Part shown: piece by piece, positions 19,105 to 45,358 of the stretch
How positions within the stretch are numbered: position 1 is the stretch's first letter
How the letters are laid out: each line of letters starts with the position of its first letter
Assembly (NCBI GenBank): GCA_964629815.1
Contig: CAZVTA010000001.1
Location: 253,226-317,225, forward strand
Direction: 5' to 3'
From: an uncultured Candidatus Saccharibacteria bacterium
Lineage (GTDB): Bacteria; Patescibacteriota; Saccharimonadia; Saccharimonadales; AWTP1-31
DNA length: 64,000 nucleotides
Translations under genes and position numbers: made by a program
Notes under the pieces: model-generated
What the model was told of the DNA's origin: nothing
Databases searched by the model: none
Seen by the model: only the letters and a program-made list of their open reading frames with translations

Positions 19105-21576
19105 CTACTCATGTGAGAGCGTATATACAAGCTGGCTTGCTTTTACACCAACCTTTACGGTACTGCCCTTTTCGAGTTGCGCATCAAGTAATCCGTGCGC
19201 AATGTAATCTTCTATAGTATCCTGGATGAGTCGTCGAAGCGGACGCACCCCATTGTGCGCGTCGTAACCTTTTTCGAGCAGATACTGTTTTGCTGCAGGG
19301 TTGACTGAAACAATAACCCCGTGTCTGACAAGACGCTGTTTTAGTTCAGTGATCTGGAGATCAAGAATTGCAAGTGCATCTTTCTTAGTTAGCGCCCTAA
19401 AGACCAGTACCTTATCTATACGGTTTAATAGTTCTGGGCGCATAATCTTCTTGAGTTCGTCCTGTACTTTTTCTTTGTTGCGCATATGCAAACTATCAAG
19501 ATCTTTCTCAGTTTGCTTATCATCAACCCTAAAGCCCAATGATGCTTCCTTCTGCAGTTTGTCGGCACCAATATTACTGGTCATAATAATTATAGTATTG
19601 GTAAAATCAACGGCGCGTCCTTTTGCGTCTGTCAGCACTCCGTCTTCAAGAATCTGCAGGAGCATGTTAAACACATCTGGATGTGCCTTTTCGATTTCAT
19701 CGAACAGGATTAGACTATAGGGTTGTCTTCGTACTTTATCGGTCAGTTGGCCGCCTTCATCATAACCAACATAACCCGCTGGCGCACCAACCAAACGCGA
19801 GGCGGTGTGTCTTTCGCCAAACTCACTCATATCTATTTTAATGAGCGCTTCTTTACTACCAAAGAATTCACCCGCAAGCACACGAGCCAATTCTGTCTTT
19901 CCAACGCCCGTTGGCCCTAAGAATACAAACGATCCAATGGGGCGTTTTTCGCTACTCACACCAGAGCGATTGCGACGAATTGCTTTACTCACTGCTTCAA
20001 CCGCCTCATCTTGTCCTATAACATGTTTCGCAAGCGTCTTCTCAAGGCTTAGCAGGTATTTTGCTTCGGCACGTACTACTTTTTTGACGGGCACACCGGT
20101 CATACGTGCCACAACCTCAGCCACATCGTCGCTTTTTACGGTTATTGTATTAACTGCTTTGCCATCTTTGTGGAATGATTTCAGCTGTTCATTGATCTGA
20201 CTTGCGCGAGTTTTGTATTGCGCTGCCCGCTCGTAATCTTCAGAGTCGACAGCATCATCAATCTGCTGAGCTACGAGCTTAAGCTCTTTCTGTAATCGTC
20301 GTAGCTCAGGACTCGTCTTACCTTTATCAACGCGAAGATATGCTGCAGTTTCATCAAGCAAATCAATGGCCTTGTCTGGCATGTATCGATCGTTAATGTA
20401 CCTGTCGGCCATAGATACGATGTCTTCAAGTACTTCATCTGCGTACGTTACAGTATGATACGACTCATAGTGCTGTCGCAGACCCTTTAAAATCTGAAGC
20501 GTTTCCGGCTTAGAGGCTTCCGGTACAATAATTGGCTGCAATCTTCGCTCTAGCGCCGCATCTTTTTCAATATGTTTTGTGTATTCATCAGTTGTGGTTG
20601 CACCAATAAGCTGAACTTTGCCTCGTGCTAGAGCAGGTTTGAGTATATTACCCGCATCCATTGCACCTTCCGCAGCCCCTGCGCCAACTATAAGATGTAA
20701 CTCATCTATGAATACGATAGTTTTATTATCATTCTCAAGTTCTGACATGACTTTTTTGAGTCGTTCCTCAAACTCACCTCGGTATTTTGTACCAGCAATC
20801 ATGCCCGCTAGATCAAGCATAACAATACGTTTTTCAAGCAGTGAATCTGGAACGTCTTCAGCCACAATGCGTTGTGCCAAACCTTCTACAATGGCTGTCT
20901 TACCGACACCTGGTTCACCGATAAGCACGGGGTTGTTTTTTGTACGCCTATTTAGGATTGTAATCATGCGGCGGATTTGTGCATCTCGCCCAATAACTGG
21001 ATCAAGCTTGCCCTCGCGAGCAGCAGCAGTAAGATCGGTACCAAAGAAGTCTAATGCAGTTTTTCTTTTGTTTTTACCTCGGCGTCTGGTTCCCGTGTTT
21101 CCTGATGAGTCCATTTGTTGGCGATTTAGGAACTGCTCGAGACCTTGTGACAAATTCTCGACATCAATGTTCATCTCACGCAGTAGCACCGTTGCTCGGG
21201 CATTTTTTTGTGACAATATACTATACAGTATATGTTCAGTACCACAGAACTCTTGTCCAAAGTCTTGAGCAACTTCATAGGCCATTTTGAGGGTTAGTTT
21301 AGCAATTTCGCTCAATCCTTTGGCGCCCATGTTCAGTACCATTGTCTTAGGGGTAAGGTTCAGCGCTAAACGGGCTCTATCAAGTGTTACACCAGCATCT
21401 TCTAGAAGCTTTGCACCCATACTACTATCTTGAGCAAGCACTCCTAGTAGTAGGTGCTCTGTGCCGACATATGCACTCCCAAAACTGCGAGCAATTGCAT
21501 CTGCGTGTTTTAAGCTTTGTAGTGCATTATCTGTAAGATGGTTCAAAAATTCTTGGAAGTCTGGTGAGTTTTGCAT
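19105..21576 (-). CDS. clpC: ATP-dependent Clp protease ATP-binding subunit ClpC-type (class I AAA+)
   Basis: 823 aa. Two Clp-N repeats, Walker A motifs GEPGVGKT and GPTGVGKT, and a UVR-like linker ([14 protein letters not shown]). Confidence 0.93.
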
Positions 21577-21597
21577 AGTACTTTCATAGTATCAAAC

Positions 21598-21622
21598 TAG
21601 CACTCGCAGTGCAAGAGTGCTA
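21598..21622. promoter_or_regulatory. perfect 8-bp inverted repeat (TAGCACTC-N9-GAGTGCTA) between the 192-aa ORF and clpC
   Basis: Read directly from the sequence. It lies 22 nt upstream of the clpC ATG. It could be a weak terminator (followed by GUUUG) or an operator. It does not match the CtsR box I know. Confidence 0.3.
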
Positions 21623-21633
21623 AATGTACGTTC

Positions 21634-22212
21634 TTATACTACCAGGGATGTCCTAATATCATCCCCTGTATTGGTAACCTTGTGGAGAGGGCGCCATTTT
21701 TGAGGTATTGGATTAACAAAATACAGTGCGTCTCCAGGTGTGAGCGATAATGTTATCTGTTCTTTTGAAACTGGATCAACCAATGCACAGGTTGCACTTC
21801 CATCTAAGTTGACGGCAACGGTATCATCGGCGTACCTATCGCGGTGTTTGCGTGTATGGCCATTAGGGAGATAGCGAAGAATTTGAAATACAAATCTATC
21901 GTTAACATGTAGTTTTCTGGTTGCGGAGTAGAAGATTTGCAATAGGTCAGGGACAATTTCGCATACTTCTGAATCATTACGTATTGTATGAGGATTATTT
22001 GGATACTTCTTTGCGCTCCATGCACCTACCTGGTAGAATTCAATTCCTTCTTGTCCTGGAGGAGAATAGTCAGATGATCGAACAAACGAAAATTCATCGG
22101 CAAATTCAATAAGCAAATTAGCTTGTTCTGCAGCCCGGATAGCTGCACTACAATCTGCAAAGTTTGATATAAACTCCCAGTTAGCACCCTCTTGAGCCGC
22201 TTTTTCTGTCAT
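21634..22212 (-). CDS. 2OG/Fe(II) oxygenase-like protein (prolyl-4-hydroxylase-like motif pattern)
   Basis: 192 aa. H123-R-D125, then PGDALYF, H177, then R187-T-S189. The spacing is typical of the HxD...H...RxS facial triad plus the 2OG-binding Arg. Confidence 0.6.
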   Translation of the reverse strand: MTEKAAQEGANWEFISNFADCSAAIRAAEQANLLIEFADEFSFVRSSDYSPPGQEGIEFYQVGAWSAKKYPNNPHTIRNDSEVCEIVPDLLQIFYSATRKLHVNDRFVFQILRYLPNGHTRKHRDRYADDTVAVNLDGSATCALVDPVSKEQITLSLTPGDALYFVNPIPQKWRPLHKVTNTGDDIRTSLVV

Positions 22213-22223
22213 ATAATACCTAT

Positions 22224-22280
22224 TACTCGCCGTGTTCTTCGATTGCTTCGAGAAGGCTACTCTCGAGCTATTCTCTTTCC
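22224..22280. repeat. direct repeat copy A: untranslated remnant of the nusA 3' end
   Basis: 22227-22269 is identical base for base to 23163-23205 (43 bp), with weaker flanking similarity. On the minus strand it would encode LESSLLEAIEEHGE-TAA, but it is preceded by an in-frame TAG and lies in no ORF. Confidence 0.9.
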
Positions 22281-22354
22281 ACTTGAGACTTATTAGTTTA
22301 TGTAAGCCAATGCTTCAATAGTACCAGAATTAGTAATCCACATTCGAGTAATCA

Positions 22355-22870
22355 TTAAAGAACGATATCTGCCCATCCTGCCAAGAGTGTTATTCGAGGA
22401 GCACTGATTGGGTTGACACTATGCGGTATACGTCGCTCATCAGGCACTCGTTCATTATGCACAATGAACATATCACCAGGATATGCCATACCTAATCGTT
22501 TACCGAAACCTTCACCAAATCGTATATCAACTACACCCATTAACATTACGCCCTTAACAAGACCAACCGTACGGTGATCAGTGTGCGTTGGTACTTGATA
22601 CTCTTCTTCGGTCACTATAGCATTGACATAATGTGGCCGTGGCGAAACACCCCGCATGGCCTCGATGACCAAAGACATACCAACAAATGACTCTTGTTGT
22701 TCGTGAGACAACCGTACGTAAGGTAAGCTTGACTTCTCTGTACAACCAAGTGCTAGTTCGCCTAAATGTATAGCACTCAACAGATCATGACCCAACATGG
22801 CGGCGTCAACTGGGGGGATAATATTCCGCTGGATCTCAACTGATGGTTCACCATTCATTGTTGCAAACAT
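22355..22870 (-). CDS. 2OG/Fe(II) oxygenase-like protein, divergent paralog of the 192-aa ORF
   Basis: 171 aa. H96-T-D98, PGDMFIV, H150, R159-I-T161, then W. The motif order and spacing match 21634-22212. Confidence 0.6.
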   Translation of the reverse strand: MFATMNGEPSVEIQRNIIPPVDAAMLGHDLLSAIHLGELALGCTEKSSLPYVRLSHEQQESFVGMSLVIEAMRGVSPRPHYVNAIVTEEEYQVPTHTDHRTVGLVKGVMLMGVVDIRFGEGFGKRLGMAYPGDMFIVHNERVPDERRIPHSVNPISAPRITLLAGWADIVL

Positions 22871-22930
22871 ACACCGTCAGTGTATTGCACCAAGAGCCCT
22901 TAAACAAGATCTTACAGGACGACATAGCGA

Positions 22931-23155
22931 TTATTTCTGTCGTTTATCCCACATATCTTGAGTAATAACTCCACCCAAATCCATTGCAACAAGTAAACGC
23001 AGATATTCTAGTGGTGTATTTATATCTAATTGACGCACTCGCTCATTAATCTGCATAAGAATGTTATCTGGTAACATAATCGTTACAACACTCAGATCAG
23101 GTACTTCCCATCTCCATGCATCTTCAGGAATCGCGTCATCAAACTCGCCTGACAT
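22931..23155 (-). CDS. small ribbon-helix-helix-like protein (CopG/antitoxin-type fold predicted from pattern)
   Basis: 74 aa. VVTIMLPDNILMQINERVRQLDINTPLEYLRLLVAMDL fits a beta-strand/helix/helix RHH pattern. The ATG lies 3 nt after the nusA stop. Confidence 0.5.
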   Translation of the reverse strand: MSGEFDDAIPEDAWRWEVPDLSVVTIMLPDNILMQINERVRQLDINTPLEYLRLLVAMDLGGVITQDMWDKRQK

Positions 23156-23158
23156 TGG

Positions 23159-24304
23159 CTATTCGCCGTGTTCTTCGATTGCTTCGAGAAGGCTACTCTC
23201 GAGCTGCTCTTTCTTCTTTAGACGTGGCGGTTGCACTTTAGGCTCTGCTGCAACAGGAGCTGGCGCTTCTTCTGCGGTGATATCAATATCGTAGCCTGTT
23301 AGTTTACTTGCAAGGCGTACGTTTTGTCCACTTTTACCAATTGCAATACTTTGTTGGTCTTCAGGAACAAAAACAGTTGCTTTTTTGTTGGCTTCGTCGA
23401 GATCTACCTTTGTAACCTTAGTTGGGCTTAATGCATTGATGATGTATTTCTTAGGGTCTTTGTCCCATACAATAATGTCGATTTTTTCTTGTTCACCAAT
23501 CTCGCTCATAACCGCGTTTACGCGAGTACCATGACCACCAACAAACGTTCCCACAGGATCAACGCCTGGCACATTACTTATAACTGCAAGTTTAGTTCGA
23601 ACGCCAGCCTCTCGTGCAATGTCCTTAATCTCTACTGAATTGTTTTCCATCTCGGGAACTTCTGCACGGAAAAGATGCTCGACAAACTGCGCATTACCAC
23701 GGCTCACCACCAACTGTGGGCCACGAAAACCGCGTTCAACATCTTTAAGAAAAACCTTGAGACGTTGACCAGGATAGTATCGCTCACCTTGTATTTGTTC
23801 GCTGCGAGGCAAGATACCTTGGGCTTTGCCAAGATCTATGCGTACAATCATACCTTCAACACGAGAGACAAGCCCATTAATAATGGTTCCGATTTTATCG
23901 TCGTATTCGGCCATAACAATTTCTCGTTCTGCCTCACGAAGTCTCTGTAAGATAACTTGTTTGGCTGTTTGTGCTGCAACGCGACCAAAGTGCTCAACTT
24001 TTTCGTGAATCTCAATCATATCACCAATTGCAGCGTTCTTTTTCATAGCTTGTGCATCGGTAAGGCTAATTTCATATTTATCGTCGCCCACACGCTCAAC
24101 AACTTCTTTTTGGATATACGCATCAACGTCACCTGTAGCAAGATTCATCGTAACGCGCACTTCTTGCTCGCGATCACCATAATCTCGTCGATACGCTGCA
24201 GCAAGCGCTTGCTCAACAATTTCTTGCACCATATCTTCTGGTAAATTCTTCTCCTCTGCAATAGCTTTTACCGCTACTGCCAGTCCTTTCATATCTAGTT
24301 CCAT
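23159..24304 (-). CDS. nusA: transcription termination/antitermination factor NusA
   Basis: 381 aa. N-terminal domain, S1 domain, and KH domains with GKSGQNVRLAS. AAGGAG lies 8 nt upstream of the ATG. Confidence 0.93.
   Translation of the reverse strand: MELDMKGLAVAVKAIAEEKNLPEDMVQEIVEQALAAAYRRDYGDREQEVRVTMNLATGDVDAYIQKEVVERVGDDKYEISLTDAQAMKKNAAIGDMIEIHEKVEHFGRVAAQTAKQVILQRLREAEREIVMAEYDDKIGTIINGLVSRVEGMIVRIDLGKAQGILPRSEQIQGERYYPGQRLKVFLKDVERGFRGPQLVVSRGNAQFVEHLFRAEVPEMENNSVEIKDIAREAGVRTKLAVISNVPGVDPVGTFVGGHGTRVNAVMSEIGEQEKIDIIVWDKDPKKYIINALSPTKVTKVDLDEANKKATVFVPEDQQSIAIGKSGQNVRLASKLTGYDIDITAEEAPAPVAAEPKVQPPRLKKKEQLESSLLEAIEEHGE
23160..23214. repeat. direct repeat copy B: the functional 3' end of nusA
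   Basis: 23163-23205 is identical to 22227-22269. The offset between the two copies is exactly 936 bp. Confidence 0.9.
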
Positions 24305-33361: not shown

Positions 33362-36300
33362 CTATTGCAATTTGACGCTGTTTTTTCCTACTAAAGATCG
33401 TAAAACCTGTAGCGCATCCTCGGTGGGCTGTATTTTGTGAGGCAAGCGCAAAACTTGTTTGTCTGCATCGTTGCCAAGCACTAAAATAACCTCCACCATA
33501 CCTGGATGTGCGTCAATAATTTGTTTAAGTGCTAGCAGCACATCATTGCTGCTCTTTTCAATTCGAACATAGCACGTGCTGTACGACGAAGCGTCATCAT
33601 TAACTGTTTGTGCTATATGCTTTACGCGCTTCTTGGGCTCGGTTGGTGTCTTAACCGCCTTACCGCCAGGTATATAATTTTTTGCCTCGTCGTGTGTCAC
33701 TTCCCGTGCAGAATCGGCTAGTATTTTTACCTCAGAAGAAACATTACCATCTCTATCCTGGCCGGTTATTTTACCTCGCACACATACAATTCTGTCTTTT
33801 TGCCAGAGTTCAGGCGCCTGCGCATACACACCCGGAAAAAGAATAAGTTCCATCTCGGCTGAAGTATCGTCGATTTTTATAAAAGCCATCTTTTGGCCTT
33901 TTTTTGTTGTTATTTCACGAACATCAAGAATCACGCCACCAACAGTAACAGCCTTGTTGTGCATCGTCGGTTTTAATTGCGCCAAAGGCACTGTTTGCTC
34001 TGATAGCCAAATTTTATAATCCTCAAGCGGGTGTTGCGACAAATAGAGTCCAAGTAATTCTCGTTCCCATTGCAGCTGTTCACGCTGAGTAAATTGGTGA
34101 ACATCTTCATCTAGTTTTAGTTTCGGTCGAAAATCATCGGCTTCTGAAACAACATTACCGAACAGATCAGTTTGACCACTTACTTTCTCTTTCTGCAATC
34201 GAGAGCCATAGCCTAATAACACATCAAGGTTACCTAAAAGTAAAGATCGATCACCAAACCTATCTAGGGCGCCAGCTTTAATAAGGCTTTCCAACGCTTT
34301 TCTATTAACAACTCGTACGTTTACTCGCTCAAAGAAATCTTCGAGATTTTTGAACGGCGCTTCACTTCGTGCTCGAATGATCTCTTCTACGGCACCTGAT
34401 CCTACATTTTTTATCGCCGCCATTCCAAATCGTATTTGATTTGTTTCTGGAACAACAGCAAATTCCAGGAAAGATTCAGCCACATCGGGAGATAGTACCG
34501 TAAGACCCATGTGGTTGCACTCACTAATCTCGATTGCTAATCTGTCAGTGTCATCAAAGTCGCTCGTCATGAGTGCCGCCATAAACGCAGCCGGATAATG
34601 AGCCTTAAGATAGGCTGTCTGATAAGCAATAAGCGCATAACATGCGGCATGCGATTTATTGAAACAGTATGCTGCAAAATCTTCGAGCTGTTTCCAAAAC
34701 TGTTGCATCAGGCCCTGATCTATACCGGATACTCGTTGCCCACCAGAGATCATTTTGTCCTTCATTTTTGCCATAAGCTCAGCATTCTTTTTACCTATAG
34801 CCTTACGCAAAGTGTCAGCTTCACCGCCCGTAAAGCCGCATACTTCTTTACTTATCTGCATAACCTGTTCCTGATACACCAGCACCCCATAGGTATTCTT
34901 TAGAGCATTTTCCATAGTAGGATGAGGATATATGATCTCTCGTTGCCCATGTTTCCGCGCAATAAAGTCATCAATAAACTGCATTGGACCTGGCCGGTAC
35001 AATGCAACCATGGCAACGATATCTTCGAATTCTGTAGGACGAAGCTCTTTTAGATAGCGCTTCATTCCCGCAGATTCCAACTGAAACACCCCAGTTGTAT
35101 CGCCATGCTGAAAAAGTTTCATGGCTTTGTCATCGTCGAGTGGGATGGTGTTGATATCGATATCTTTGGCATAAACCTTTTTGATAATACGCAGTGCGTT
35201 TTTTATGATCGTTAAGTTCGAAAGTCCCAAGAAATCCATCTTGAGCAGACCAAGCTCTTCTACTGGTCCCATTGAGTACTGCGTTGATATTACCCCTTTT
35301 TGTGCCATCTCGAGCGGAGCATACTTTACGATTTCGCTTGGAGCTATGACAACGCCTGCAGCATGTACGCCGTGGCTCCGAATCGTTCCTTCCATCTGTA
35401 TTGCAAGATCAAAAATGCGTTTGCTTTGCTCATTTGATTCGTACTCTGTTTTTAGGTCTACGTCGTCTTTTAGCGACTGTTTGAGCGGAATATGCCGCCC
35501 CTGCACTGGAGGAGGAATCATTTTTGCAAGTCTATCCGCTTCGGCGTATGGAACCTGCAAAACTCTTGCTACATCGCGTACTGCGTTGCGCGCCGCCATA
35601 CGACCGAAAGTCACGATATTCGCGACACGGTCTGTTCCATATTTACGCACGCAATATTGGATAACCTCATCTCTTCGTGTATCTTGAATATCAATATCAA
35701 TATCCGGCATGCTGATTCGATCTGGGTTGAGAAATCTCTCAAATAGCAGGTCATATTTTATTGGGTCAAGCTCGGTAATCTTTAATGCATATGCAATAAT
35801 CGAGCCCGCCGCGGAACCCCTTCCAGGACCAAAAACAATACCTTCATCCTTGCCCCAGTTAATAAAGTCAGAAATAATCAAGAAATAGCCGTTAAACCCC
35901 ATCTGACTTATAACATTAAGCTCATATTCGGTGCGCTCTGCAATATGCTTAGGTAATGCTTTTTTTGCAACAGCAATACTCATCTTCGAAGCGTCTACTT
36001 CGCTTATACCTCCGTATCGCCACGCAACACCCCTGTAGACCAGCTTATGTAGGTAAGATTCCTCGGTTTCGCCTTCAGGGACCGGAAATTGCGGGATAAG
36101 AATTTTACCGAGTTCTATGTCTACACTGCACCTTTCGGCAATCTTGCGAGTATTTGTGATGATATCAGGATGAGTCTTGCCCCACCGTGTAATAATTTCT
36201 TCTGGGTCAGTCACATGCAGTTCAAATTCTTTAAGACTCATACGTTTTTCGTCGCTCATAAATGATCCCGTCTGTACACACAATAAGATCTCGTGAGCTT

Positions 36301-37467: not shown

Positions 37468-37732
37468 TTCTTCGACTCCCTTTTGCTGTTTTATCTCTAA
37501 ATGATGCAACTACATTTGATAGCAGTTTTGCAATCGCGGCTGGTCCAGATGTGCTTCGAAAGAAGTCGCTAACTGCTTCTGCTTTATCGGCGATACTCTC
37601 CGCTTTTTCAGTTATATGCTTTACGCGATTCATAATTTGTATAACCTTAATAGCAATTACAATAAGCAAAACAAGCAATATGGCAAGTGTTGTCGACAAA
37701 ATTATGACGAGAATTCTCTCTGATGTATCCAT
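37454..37732 (-). CDS. small membrane protein, DUF948-like
   Basis: 92 aa. One N-terminal TM segment followed by an amphipathic helix. The usual genomic partner is YtxH. Confidence 0.55.
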   Translation of the reverse strand: MDTSERILVIILSTTLAILLVLLIVIAIKVIQIMNRVKHITEKAESIADKAEAVSDFFRSTSGPAAIAKLLSNVVASFRDKTAKGSRRNGKR

Positions 37733-41307: not shown

Positions 41308-42006
41308 TTAGCTCGTAAGAATCCAGCGAATAACCATATCGCGAATTTTTATGTACTCTGCTTCTTCAAACTGCATATTTGCAATACAAAAACGTTTACT
41401 ACTTAAATGTGAACAGAACATACAGTCCTGTAAATCTCGTGCATCATGAATAAAGAATGAATTGGTAATACTATTTGACCACGATACATTAAAGCTATTA
41501 CTGCATTTAGCGCTATCTTCGAGTCGTAAACAAAACATAGAGGCTTGCGACCTTTGACCTGCAACAATATATTCGCAGCCAGCTTGTACGCCATCGCTAA
41601 AAACAATATTTTTAGACTGATTTATGTCTTGGGAGCGAAATACGTTCTCTGAGCTATAAATATTATCGCTTTGTGCAATATTGAGCGAGTCAATTTGTCG
41701 CTCTGTGGTAGTAAAATTAATTTCATTCCATGCCGATAACACTTCTTCGATTGTAGCGAGGGCCTTCTTTGGCCTATTCCAATAGCCGTCTGGCATGGTA
41801 AAGTTTTTTTCGAGTGTCATGAACTTTGTCGGGTTGGTAGACTGTGCCCAGGTAGGCGTATTGTCTATTGAGTCATACACTTGCTGAGGCAAGCGAACAT
41901 CAAACGCAAATTTTTGTTGTACTTGTTCTAGTGTGAATGGATTCTGATAGCCAAATATCTGGCCAATCACTTTGTCGACAATTTCTTTTGCTTGTTGCTC
42001 GTTCAT
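41308..42006 (-). CDS. hypothetical protein with a Cys/Ser/Asn-rich degenerate repeat region in the C-terminal half
   Basis: 232 aa. The ATG overlaps the stop of the upstream ATPase (TAATG). The C-terminal ~120 aa shows roughly 20-residue pseudo-repeats containing 6 Cys. Confidence 0.65.
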   Translation of the reverse strand: MNEQQAKEIVDKVIGQIFGYQNPFTLEQVQQKFAFDVRLPQQVYDSIDNTPTWAQSTNPTKFMTLEKNFTMPDGYWNRPKKALATIEEVLSAWNEINFTTTERQIDSLNIAQSDNIYSSENVFRSQDINQSKNIVFSDGVQAGCEYIVAGQRSQASMFCLRLEDSAKCSNSFNVSWSNSITNSFFIHDARDLQDCMFCSHLSSKRFCIANMQFEEAEYIKIRDMVIRWILTS

Positions 42007-44240
42007 TATTTCTTACCCTTCCCAATCTTTAGTTTCTTGCGGCTCGAAGACTGACTTGCTAGCAGATCCTGCAGGTTCATACCTCTTGACTCTGTGGCAT
42101 TTGATCCCAAAGTCATGTCTGCAGCCACGTGTTGTGCTTGTTGAGCAGGTGGATTATGCACAATTTCAGGATTTCCTTCAAAAGCATGTACAGTTTGCTC
42201 ACCCATTTGTTGCGCTTCAGTAGGTGTTGCAGGCTCTAATATCTCTTTGACAAGCTGATCAGTTGGACTCATAGCGGTTGCAGACATTTCTGTTGGTGTG
42301 GGACCGGGCTCAAGGTGCGGTAGTGCAGGATTCATAACAGGTGATAAATTTGCAGCCGCCTGTTCAACAAATTTATCTGGCAACTGTTGCGGTTGATTGT
42401 ATACTTCAAGATCTTCTACCTTTACATTTGCAGACGGTAAAGCGTCGAGCGTACGCGCTTTGACGCACGGGAGCATCTGCCCATCGCTACTTAAGCGCAA
42501 AAAACACTCACGGGAGTTAAGCGCCGTAAGCATTTGAACGCGCACATCGGACTGTTTTAAGCCCTTTGCCTTTTCTTGCTCGAGTATCTCTTTAGGGATT
42601 TCTATCGTCAGATTACCTTCAAGCGCACGCGCATCTTCTTCGGAAACACGAAATACATAGTAGTTATAAACGTTCGTAAAGATAGCTTCTTGCAATGACT
42701 TCTCGATCTGGCCAAAGTATTGCTGAGTCAGAAATACATAGAGATTGTACTTTCTTGCCTCCGCAAGAATGCTCGCAAGCGCTGGGTTCTGTACAACCGA
42801 TACTTCATCAACAATAAGAATTATCTTTTCATTAAAAGCACGGGCTTGGGCGAGCAAAAATATCTGCTGAATGAGCAAACCAGCGACTGTCTTAACAACC
42901 TTCTCTCCCATACTTACCTTATTGAGTGAAAATACCGTCAAAAAGTTATTGCCAATAATCTTGCCTAACGATGCACCTTCGTCACCAGTCTTTGCGAGAG
43001 ATGGCTGCATCTGCATCTCATCAACAAGAGAGATAATGGGGACAATCGATTCGTTGTAGTATTTTGTACGCAGTTCATTAAAGTCGGCTCCAAAGAACTG
43101 AACGATATTTGCAGGTACATACCCGTCAACATGCTGCAGCAGTTGGTTCCTAAACTCTACATCAGTCACAAAGCGCTTGAGACTATCCAGAGACATTGTT
43201 TGCGCCGTCATTAGTACATATAAACTGAAACGAAGTAATCGTTCGACCTTCGGGTTAAACTGATCGGCTAAAAGGGATTTGAACAGCGTGCCCGTAAGCT
43301 CTGTTGCCGCTGATATATCCGTACCTGCGCCACCAAACAATTCTGTCGCTTGGTCATCGCCTTTGAAATTTATGACAGTTGAGTTTGGTATGCCTGCAAA
43401 ATCCTGTTCAAGTGAGGCATGAGGGTCAATAACAACTATCCGATAATTATTCTGCAGACCACCGGATTTACTCAAACGGTCTACAAATAACGTAATGAGT
43501 TTTGATTTACCGCTACCGCTCGCGCCAATAATAAAAGAGTGTTTGTCAAAATCGTAGGCATTAATTGGCAGGTAGTAGTTTTTAGGCAAGAACGGAAATG
43601 TATCGACCTCAAACACAGCGTTCACATTATCACTTTGCATAATGTGCAGTGCCTTTTGTATGTCGAGATACTTTGGCTGCTTTTTTCGCATGTATTTAGT
43701 ATTGGCAACAAAATCTACCGCTAATAGATGCGCCGGGAGCATAAAAAGGGTCTTTTTCGCGACACTGTGCTGACCAGCCGTATTCTTGAAATACATTTTG
43801 AGGCGAACATGTGCTTTTTCAACGTTCAGTGTCCGGATAGTAAACTCAGCAAATTCAAGCTCTTTTGCACGCTTTACTTGATACTTCTCCTTGAGATCCA
43901 AAATATTACCACCACCAACATACTGAACAAAACGCTCTACGCTTGATGCTTGCGGTAGTTTTACGAGACTATGGTCAATTGGCCGTAACACAACACCGTC
44001 AAGGTTATTCGAAAGAAGTCCAACATCTTTATTGGTACCAACCCAGTATCGCACGGTGCTTTTTTCGATAACAACAATTAATTTCCAGCTATTTAGAAAC
44101 CCTATGTATTGAGACAACCCTAGGACTATTGTCTTCCAGGCAGCAGCATCGAGTTGATCTCTCAACAGATACAATTCGTACCAATGTTCGTACTCAAGCG
44201 TACGATTGTTTTGCATGAGCTTTATTATATACATTTCCAT
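42006..44240 (-). CDS. FtsK/HerA-superfamily P-loop ATPase (VirB4/DUF87-like) with a disordered Pro/Gln-rich, Lys-terminated tail
   Basis: Walker A GASGSGKS, Walker B IILIVDE, and [13 protein letters not shown] (RKYN...TQ, as in VirB4-type ATPases). No TM segment. The true start may be ATG 44216 (MQNNRT), which has TATAAT 7 nt upstream. Confidence 0.8.
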
Positions 44241-44281: not shown

Positions 44282-45358
44282 ATGAGCATTATAGGGATAC
44301 GCATGTCGACTTTAGAAAAATACCCCGAAACCCAAGCAGAAACTCCGGTGCTCGATGTTCCAATGGATATAGTTCTAGACTATAAGACCGATATTGTACG
44401 GCCCGAGACTCATTCTCACTACACCGTACGTACCGATGGCGCAACCATGTCAGACGGGCATAGCTACGCGGTCGTAAAAGGGATACCAAAACACCCAATC
44501 ACCCCACTAACTATTGGCTTTACGTCTGCTTGGTGGACTAGTTCTCGGGGGCATAATCGTAGGACATTAGAGCATTTTACTCGCCTGGGCATTCCGACAA
44601 TATTGATTGGCGCCGAAGGCAGTTATCGACCGAGCGGCCCAAACGGCATCCCCCTACCAAAGGAACCTATCAGCCTCACACGCAGTGCTCATAGTTTTCA
44701 CGAAATCCTAAACATCATTGCAAGCTCAGAAGACCTTTCTACGCAAACAAGCACTAGAGATATGGTAATACTTGGCGAATCTAGAGGTGCAATGATCGCT
44801 AAAGGCATCATTGCAATCGCAAATGGTTATGGAAGAAATGTTGTTTACGCGGATGTGACTGCTCCCTGTTTTCCTGAAGCTTTTCAACCGAAAGATATAT
44901 TAAAACTCATGAAGCAATTGTATGGCGAACGGAATGCACTTGCTACACTAGCAGGCAATCTCACACTGCGCAGACTCGTACACTATCCGGCAACGCTAGA
45001 TTTACACCCAGAAGCTGTATCTGCCAACATACATACGTTTGGCCCCCTATTCAGCGGCGAAGCAGGAGAGCTCGCTAAAGCGATCGACAGCGACTTTCCC
45101 ATGCACATAACAACATTCAGCGACGACTTTGCAAGTATGCCAAAACGGTGGGCCCGTATATATGCAAATCACCCGAATGTACGTATCAAGCAAATTGACG
45201 GAGCACACCTTACGATAGCCCACCCACGAACATTGGAGCATATTGAAGGACGACTTTTGGGTCTATTTAGTGAAGTTGATAAACACGGGCCAGACGCAAG
45301 TAAGATTGATTATTCTCGAGTTCACCTAGACGATGGCGAATCGCCGCCTACATTTTAG
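44282..45358 (+). CDS. alpha/beta-hydrolase-fold protein
   Basis: 358 aa. Nucleophile elbow GESRG and a candidate His in [15 protein letters not shown] lies upstream. Confidence 0.65.

Follow-up and report, generated by a model that had tools for sequence, protein, structure and literature searches.

Why does the 3′ end of a housekeeping gene occur twice, 936 nucleotides (nt) apart, with two small genes in between? The question is raised by a 64,000-nt stretch of DNA from an uncultured Candidatus Saccharibacteria bacterium (contig CAZVTA010000001.1, positions 253,226 to 317,225; hereafter the window), in which a perfect 43-nt direct repeat of the end of nusA brackets open reading frames (ORFs) for proteins of 74 and 171 amino acids (aa). 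Here we analyse this repeat, the genes that it encloses and the corresponding locus in relatives. We find that the two copies have a mosaic pattern of identity, that the space between nusA and the next conserved gene, clpC, is a variable slot, that the families of the enclosed 171-aa protein and of a neighbouring 192-aa protein are confined to that slot, and that no recombinase gene was detected nearby. In all likelihood the structure is no mobile element but an ordinary scar of recombination at a spot that varies greatly. More specifically, we hold it probable, if only just, that an alternative version of the nusA–clpC slot was stacked onto the resident one.

Self-comparison of the window confirmed the repeat as an earlier note on this DNA, made from the letters alone, had described it: positions 22227–22269 and 23163–23205 are identical at 43 of 43 positions, at an offset of 936, and no second repeat of comparable quality exists in the 64 kb. 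Each half of this core has exactly two occurrences at up to three mismatches, where shuffled sequences lead one to expect none. The match continues in register over 51 nt at 94% identity (22224–22274 against 23160–23210) and, when a 2-nt insertion or deletion (indel) is allowed, gains a further 20 nt upstream, where GTCTCAAGTGGAAAGAGAAT (22270–22289) resembles GTCTAAAGAAGAAAGAGC (23206–23223). This extension is non-random, its anchored score being equalled by 3 of 3000 shuffles and by 0 of 3000 random 60-mers from the window, and the duplicated tail therefore measures about 67 nt. Identity along it is a mosaic: five substitutions and the indel fall in the adjoining 20 nt, none in the 43 nt of the core and two in the next 4 nt.

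The two copies differ in status. Copy B, whose core occupies 23163..23205 and whose homology with copy A spans 23159 to about 23223, is the working end of nusA (23159..24304; minus strand, like all genes of the locus). This gene is intact and encodes a 381-aa protein with the Pfam domains NusA_N, S1 and KH_5 that is 79–86% identical to other Saccharibacteria NusA proteins, which places the window in this group; its last 14 codons and stop constitute copy B, reading ...QLESSLLEAIEEHGE, GAA TAG. Copy A (22223..22289, minus strand) reads TAG-LESSLLEAIEEHGE-TAA-TAG, with an in-frame TAG, ends in GAG TAA and lies outside every ORF. Its sequence marks it as the dead relic of a nusA 3′ end, in agreement with the earlier note. 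Past the core, the copies differ in the wobble base of the last codon and in the stop (GAG TAA versus GAA TAG), and the flanks beyond are unrelated. With copy B, nusA keeps the same final residue, a glutamate, and a stop at the same position, which bears out the earlier suggestion that the inserted block supplies a replacement gene end. The core also contains, at 22247–22267 and again at 23183–23203, a 7-bp hairpin (TTCGAGA-AGGCTAC-TCTCGAG) that is due to the codons for LESSLLE; it is terminator-like on the antisense strand only, and its fold is not significant. A conserved role of the repeat as an RNA or terminator was considered and rejected, given fold z-scores of −0.5 to −0.6, a sole terminator-like match in antisense and no second copy in relatives.

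The locus in relatives provides the setting in which the duplication has to be read. A genome scan yielded 56 loci, to which contig look-ups added five, and in 55 of these nusA and clpC lie on one stretch in the order nusA then clpC. The spacer between them ranges from 45 to 2309 nt and holds zero to three unrelated small genes. It measures 230 nt or less, with no gene, at 31 of the 55 loci; a further 23 have spacers of 350–921 nt with assorted unrelated small ORFs, many of the inserted ORFs beginning a few nucleotides past the nusA stop; and the remaining one (L049) has 2309 nt with a methyltransferase-like ORF and a second ORF. At 1582 nt and three genes, the window has the second largest spacer. 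Among the five closest relatives, four (L002, L012, L060 and L062) have an empty spacer and L061 carries an unrelated 116-aa ORF. The spacer is thus a hypervariable slot between two conserved genes, and the 192-aa gene that follows the relic in the window is itself slot content and no fixed neighbour. An empty site in which nusA is followed directly by the 192-aa gene, as the earlier note had expected, was not found; the common state is nusA followed by clpC. A possible second recurrent group of slot proteins, small, cysteine-rich and encoded right after nusA, is seen in L003 (95 aa) and L031 (107 aa), which share 32% identity (E 8e-10); in L035 and L054 the N-termini look like this group, with no significant match.

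What the slot holds in the window also points to the slot itself. The 171-aa ORF (22355..22870, minus strand) was searched exhaustively with HMMER against 1.84 billion representative sequences, with a word index against 5.8 billion proteins and by a local scan of the relatives. Besides the protein itself, the word-index search returned P0122 (50% identity; L059) and the HMMER search returned P0124, which is 88% identical to an ORF of L006; the L006 ORF and P0124 are 27% identical to the 171-aa protein. Homologues of this tiny family were thus found at two other places only, both between nusA and clpC and both free of a repeat or relic; in L059, for example, the order is nusA, P0122, a CIRCE (controlling inverted repeat of chaperone expression) element and clpC. 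The 192-aa ORF (21634..22212, minus strand), whose ATG lies 10 nt past the relic stop and which we propose to be the displaced resident gene, encodes a protein that resembles the products of nusA-adjacent ORFs in L010, at 34% over 77 aa (E 3e-8), and in L005. Both families were found only beside nusA.

Profile comparison links the two. Alignment of the 171-aa and 192-aa families by hhalign gave a probability of 82% and an E-value of 1e-5 over 152 columns at 14% identity, which makes the two families distant homologues over their full length. The HxD...H...R motifs of both families coincide in this alignment and have the pattern of a metal-binding HxD...H triad with a downstream arginine, with H96, D98, H150 and R159 invariant in the 171-aa family and H123, D125, H177 and R187 invariant in the 192-aa family. 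For each of the two, the nearer homologues lie in other species: the 171-aa gene shares 50% and 27% identity with those of L059 and L006, respectively, but 14% with the 192-aa gene, which in turn stands closer to those of L010 and L005. Both families therefore split before these species did. The enclosed 171-aa gene appears to be an alternative version of content that this slot holds in other lineages.

Functional labels for these proteins stay at the level of motifs. Pfam, NCBIfam and PHROGs returned no match for the 74-aa, 171-aa and 192-aa proteins, and neither of the first two had a phage or plasmid match. The 192-aa relative in L005 has a sub-threshold match to Cupin_2 (E 0.0016), profile searches of PDB sequences with the cupin-like proteins gave nothing relevant, and the AlphaFold2 model of the 171-aa protein was unusable, with a predicted local distance difference test (pLDDT) score of 41; 'cupin/2-oxoglutarate-oxygenase-like' is a label drawn from the motif. 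The 74-aa ORF (22931..23155, minus strand) starts 3 nt past the nusA stop and encodes an orphan whose sole match among the 5.8 billion proteins is itself. Its AlphaFold2 model (pLDDT 63) has two isolated strand or bridge residues followed by three helices, and its top Foldseek matches, the ribbon–helix–helix proteins NikR and CdbA, have E-values above 3 and are not significant; the protein is possibly ribbon–helix–helix-like. The ribbon–helix–helix and 2-oxoglutarate-oxygenase labels that the earlier note had given to the two enclosed genes draw on motifs and weak matches only. From the start codons, which lie 3–10 nt past a nusA stop, the cupin-like proteins are probably co-transcribed with nusA.

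The duplicated tail itself is peculiar to the window. No second nusA tail was found among about 60 relatives, though 24 of them carry inserts at the site; when the nusA tail of every relative was compared with the spacer of that relative, these 24 included, all scores were at chance level. A six-frame fuzzy search for LESSLLEAIEEHG across 64 sources found one copy in each relative with this C-terminus and two in the window alone. Relatives that uniformly carry both copies as a conserved element, a situation that the earlier note had set against its own proposal, were not seen. The 43-nt core matches other species at 18–39 of its 43 positions, so the 43 of 43 between the copies reflects recent exchange and not conservation. 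An exact scan for the core found none in Joint Genome Institute (JGI) metagenome contigs and none in viral contigs, and metagenome contigs likewise yielded no match to the 192-aa protein. An exact look-up of the NusA sequence was also without a match. The flanks of the two copies each have counterparts elsewhere. Past the core, copy B continues as CCAATGTC, which resembles the TAG-CAATGTC junctions between nusA and an ORF in L003 and L040, whereas the relic continues as TAGGTATTA, matched in L016 and L017 by what follows their nusA stop. As the flank of copy B restores the same residue and stop and continues like the L003 and L040 junctions, the incoming flank would itself have been a nusA end.

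Independent data contain most of this arrangement. Three of the four junctions of the structure recur in Logan unitigs built from SRR16481182 and are therefore not an artefact of a single assembly. Unitig L001, present in three samples, is 953 bp long and consists of 893 unique bases plus 30 repeat bases (k − 1) at each end, the size expected for a k = 31 graph at a 43-nt repeat; unitig L058 starts 30 bases into the repeat and continues through the 192-aa gene into clpC. In the filled state, the left junction reads nusA-core-ATAGCCAATG and the right junction GAGAAT-core-GTAATAGG; an empty site would read nusA-core-GTAATAGG, and a circle or tandem GAGAAT-core-ATAGCCAATG. Unitigs at k = 31 break at the repeat and fit the integrated form as well as an empty site accompanied by a circle.

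Features of a mobile element were sought in and around the enclosed block. Between the copies, the 74-aa and 171-aa ORFs are the only ones of at least 60 aa, and searches of Pfam, NCBIfam and PHROG detected no integrase or transposase in either, as the earlier note had stated. No recombinase or transposase was found among ten of the larger unannotated ORFs of the window, which were scanned against Pfam and one of which encodes a VirD4/TrwB-like ATPase; the other ORFs of at least 100 aa were judged by eye on their first 50 residues only and look like housekeeping genes. No terminal inverted repeats were present at the ends of the block. We rejected a transposon or insertion sequence on the grounds of the missing transposase, the missing terminal inverted repeats and a duplication of 43–67 nt with mosaic identity, and we rejected compositional foreignness because the G+C content of the block (0.40–0.47) is like that of its surroundings.

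We infer the direction of the event, its donor and a homologous-plus-illegitimate mechanism as follows. The ancestor would have had nusA, the 192-aa gene and clpC in this order, and the donor would have been a related cell with another version of the slot, consisting of a nusA end, the 74-aa gene and the 171-aa gene. Natural competence, with integration of DNA through homologous recombination, has been shown for cultivated Saccharibacteria (PMC10633639). Incoming DNA would have entered the chromosome by recombination, with nusA as its homologous anchor, while its far end, about 65 nt past the 171-aa gene, would have been joined illegitimately to nusA roughly 64 nt before the stop. The proposed illegitimate junction is the 3′ end, in gene orientation, of the spacer between the 171-aa stop and the relic (22290..22354, minus strand), in which neither a CIRCE element, of which a decayed version was sought, nor significant structure was found. 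The two joins would have overlapped on the recipient, and the result would therefore be an insertion with a duplicated nusA tail of about 67 nt instead of a replacement. Thereafter nusA would end in the incoming tail, GAA TAG, with CCA ATG of the 74-aa gene after it, and the resident tail (GAG TAA) would persist as a non-functional remnant ahead of the displaced 192-aa gene. The perfect 43-nt block would mark the site of the last homologous exchange, whether through crossover of two slightly differing alleles or through gene conversion between the copies at a later time, which would explain the mismatches on both its sides.

Several points weigh against this reconstruction. No genome of the same species of the donor type (nusA, 74-aa gene, 171-aa gene) or of the recipient type (nusA, 192-aa gene, clpC) was found, the nearest NusA of another organism being 86% identical; the only closer entry, P0001 (100% over 377 aa, on an NCBI contig of 327,693 bp), probably belongs to the genome of the window itself. 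Homology-facilitated illegitimate recombination normally produces an insertion with a deletion, not a duplication. The junction is not a clean microhomology join either: the 5′ part of the relic has the 2-nt indel and non-conservative changes. Two accounts of it are available. The duplication may predate the last exchange, in which case, with that exchange falling in the core, the decayed 5′ part of the relic would be older; alternatively, the 17-nt patch beside the core, in which 14 positions match before the indel and which might just as well be a decayed piece of the relic, may be a patch of homeologous pairing that served the illegitimate join and lies outside the relic. A mirror-image event, in which the 192-aa gene came in anchored in clpC, would yield the same map. 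Finally, a recombinase could be encoded outside the visible 64 kb; within the window, the profile scan covered ten of the larger ORFs.

Against the stacking of two slot versions stand explanations of quite different kinds. An unlikely one, though the least unlikely of these, is a non-autonomous integrative cassette of 936 bp, on whose 43-nt core a recombinase from elsewhere or from a helper would act, with the core as attP and its nusA counterpart as attB, the copies as attL and attR, and excision as a circle. The anatomy is indeed that of attL and attR, with a perfect core, weaker flanking similarity, a restored gene end and a relic at the distal junction, and the k = 31 unitig graph is compatible with a circle and an empty site. 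This anatomy had led the earlier note to speak of foreign cargo and classic site-specific integration, a proposal that the comparison with relatives does not support: homologues of the 171-aa gene sit only between nusA and clpC and without the repeat, and the gene is a distant homologue of its 192-aa neighbour. A recurrent attachment site is at odds with the single nusA tail of the relatives, even of those with inserts at this position; no recombinase gene is present in the block or among the ten scanned ORFs; the core is missing from the JGI metagenome and viral contigs; and phage or plasmid homologues were not found. What fits best is the fallback of the same note, the scar of a recombinational cassette insertion. 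That the arrangement is no true structure at all, an assembly artefact merging two strains with different slot versions, is very improbable. The sequence was taken from a metagenome-assembled genome, and short-k graphs branch at a repeat of 43 nt; however, the junction between the downstream region of the 171-aa gene and the relic consists of contiguous k-mers in the independent Logan unitig from three samples, the junction between the relic and the 192-aa gene lies in another unitig, and two simple strains would have neither.

Two further histories would have the duplication arise by other routes, and we regard each as improbable, to about the same degree and slightly more so than the trans-mobilised cassette. 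In one, an old in situ tandem duplication of the nusA tail and a cupin-like gene was followed by divergence of the copies and gain of the 74-aa gene, while gene conversion kept the centre of the relic identical. The layout of tail and gene followed by tail and gene, the distant homology of the two genes and a relic with a decayed edge and a perfect centre, as conversion tracts would leave it, are all in keeping with this; yet both genes are closer to those of other species than to one another, all relatives would have to have lost the relic and one or both genes, the four closest with empty spacers among them, and a 43-nt non-coding block would have to remain perfect throughout. In the other, a small circular or concatemeric DNA with a nusA tail and the two genes entered by a single RecA crossover within the 43-nt identity. 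This Campbell-type event is a variant of the stacking that we favour, with the illegitimate join made earlier in another genome; the circle may have looped out of a donor that already carried the duplication. It accounts for the mosaic directly, the relic being donor sequence upstream, core, then resident sequence downstream, and the functional end being resident upstream, core, then donor downstream, and the perfect block exceeds the minimum of about 25–30 nt usually quoted for RecA exchange. Against it, no donor with the duplication was seen, an earlier illegitimate event is still required and crossover efficiency at 43–67 nt is low.

We give similarly little credence to the idea that the duplicated nusA tail is a working part, either of a cassette that carries its own homology arms or of a mini-element moved in trans by an unseen integrase. 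If true, the unit could be inserted by double crossover, looped out and transferred between genomes without a dedicated recombinase in competent Saccharibacteria, and there would be a recombinase-free cassette array downstream of nusA.

On the far side of the 192-aa gene, the variable locus has a conserved right border. A CIRCE-like inverted repeat, TTAGCACTCTTGCACTGCGAGTGCTAG, lies at 21597..21623 (minus strand) upstream of clpC (19105..21576, minus strand; 823 aa), which in relatives is conserved as the neighbour to the right of nusA. The element, of the form TTAGCACTC-N9-GAGTGCTA[GA], lies a short way upstream of clpC here as in many relatives (L014, L021, L022, L024, L047 and L059), an indication that clpC is under HrcA-type heat-shock control in this clade of Saccharibacteria. 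Elsewhere in the window, a 744-aa protein encoded at 42006–44240 (minus strand) has matches to TrwB/VirD4-type coupling proteins and HerA-like ATPases, has unannotated neighbours at 41308–42006 and 44282–45358, and may belong to the type IV secretion-like system reported for Patescibacteria. The only further direct repeat of at least 25 nt (33604–33632 and 37603–37631; 29 nt, 83%, 3999 nt apart) brackets a large dnaE-like gene region and is probably due to chance.

Read as a stacked slot, the locus records one clearly readable event of gene gain in Saccharibacteria, naturally competent organisms with small genomes and few mobile elements. It would show the nusA–clpC slot being refilled with fast-evolving small genes and recombination anchored in a housekeeping gene adding content, not merely replacing it. 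A 43-nt perfect direct repeat predicts occasional loss of the unit, and with it a presence/absence polymorphism. The cupin-like proteins of the slot form unannotated families that may merit a functional look.

Parts of this picture are familiar from other systems. In Escherichia coli, e14 and phage 21 integrate by means of an integrase at the 3′ end of icd, and the element supplies the replacement end. As there, the insert lies between two copies of a 3′ gene end, of which the proximal one leaves the gene intact, with synonymous differences, and the distal one is a relic; in contrast to these elements, the nusA locus has no integrase, excisionase or phage genes, spans 0.9 kb instead of tens of kilobases, is not reused as a site in relatives and holds a cargo family native to the locus. 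Hotspots of gene gain and loss between core genes are renewed by homologous recombination in their flanks, and the nusA–clpC slot resembles them in its two conserved flanking genes, its zero to three unrelated small genes and its lack of mobility genes. Ordinary flank exchange, however, replaces content without a scar, whereas here content was added and a duplicated gene tail left. Campbell-type insertion–duplication, in which circular DNA enters through a single homologous crossover and on which gene-disruption vectors rely, gives the same product of homology, insert and homology with the crossover inside a shared block; unlike in such vectors, the homology here is 43–67 nt and there is no vector or replicon.

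The arrays of type VI secretion system (T6SS) effector–immunity modules and orphan Rhs genes offer a further comparison. In the T6SS arrays of Vibrio cholerae and in Rhs orphans, a conserved upstream anchor is followed by displaced downstream genes with a 3′ fragment, for which the proposed mechanism is homology-facilitated illegitimate recombination, and such displacement arrays are stacks of genes from different lineages and not duplications (PMC5361080). As in T6SS, orphan Rhs and CdiA-CT arrays, the window, as we read it, has an upstream anchor, a new module beside it and a resident gene pushed back together with a 3′ fragment of the anchor; the anchor is conserved and the region behind it variable, 10 nt separate the end of the relic from the 192-aa ATG, and the contents are of differing lineages. 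The differences lie in the anchor, which is the intact housekeeping gene nusA, in the cargo, a small cupin-like gene and an orphan in place of a toxin–immunity pair, and in the extent, a single displacement step in one genome. On present evidence this is not a new kind of mobile element; the scar belongs to a known kind, and the variable slot that bears it in Saccharibacteria is newly described.

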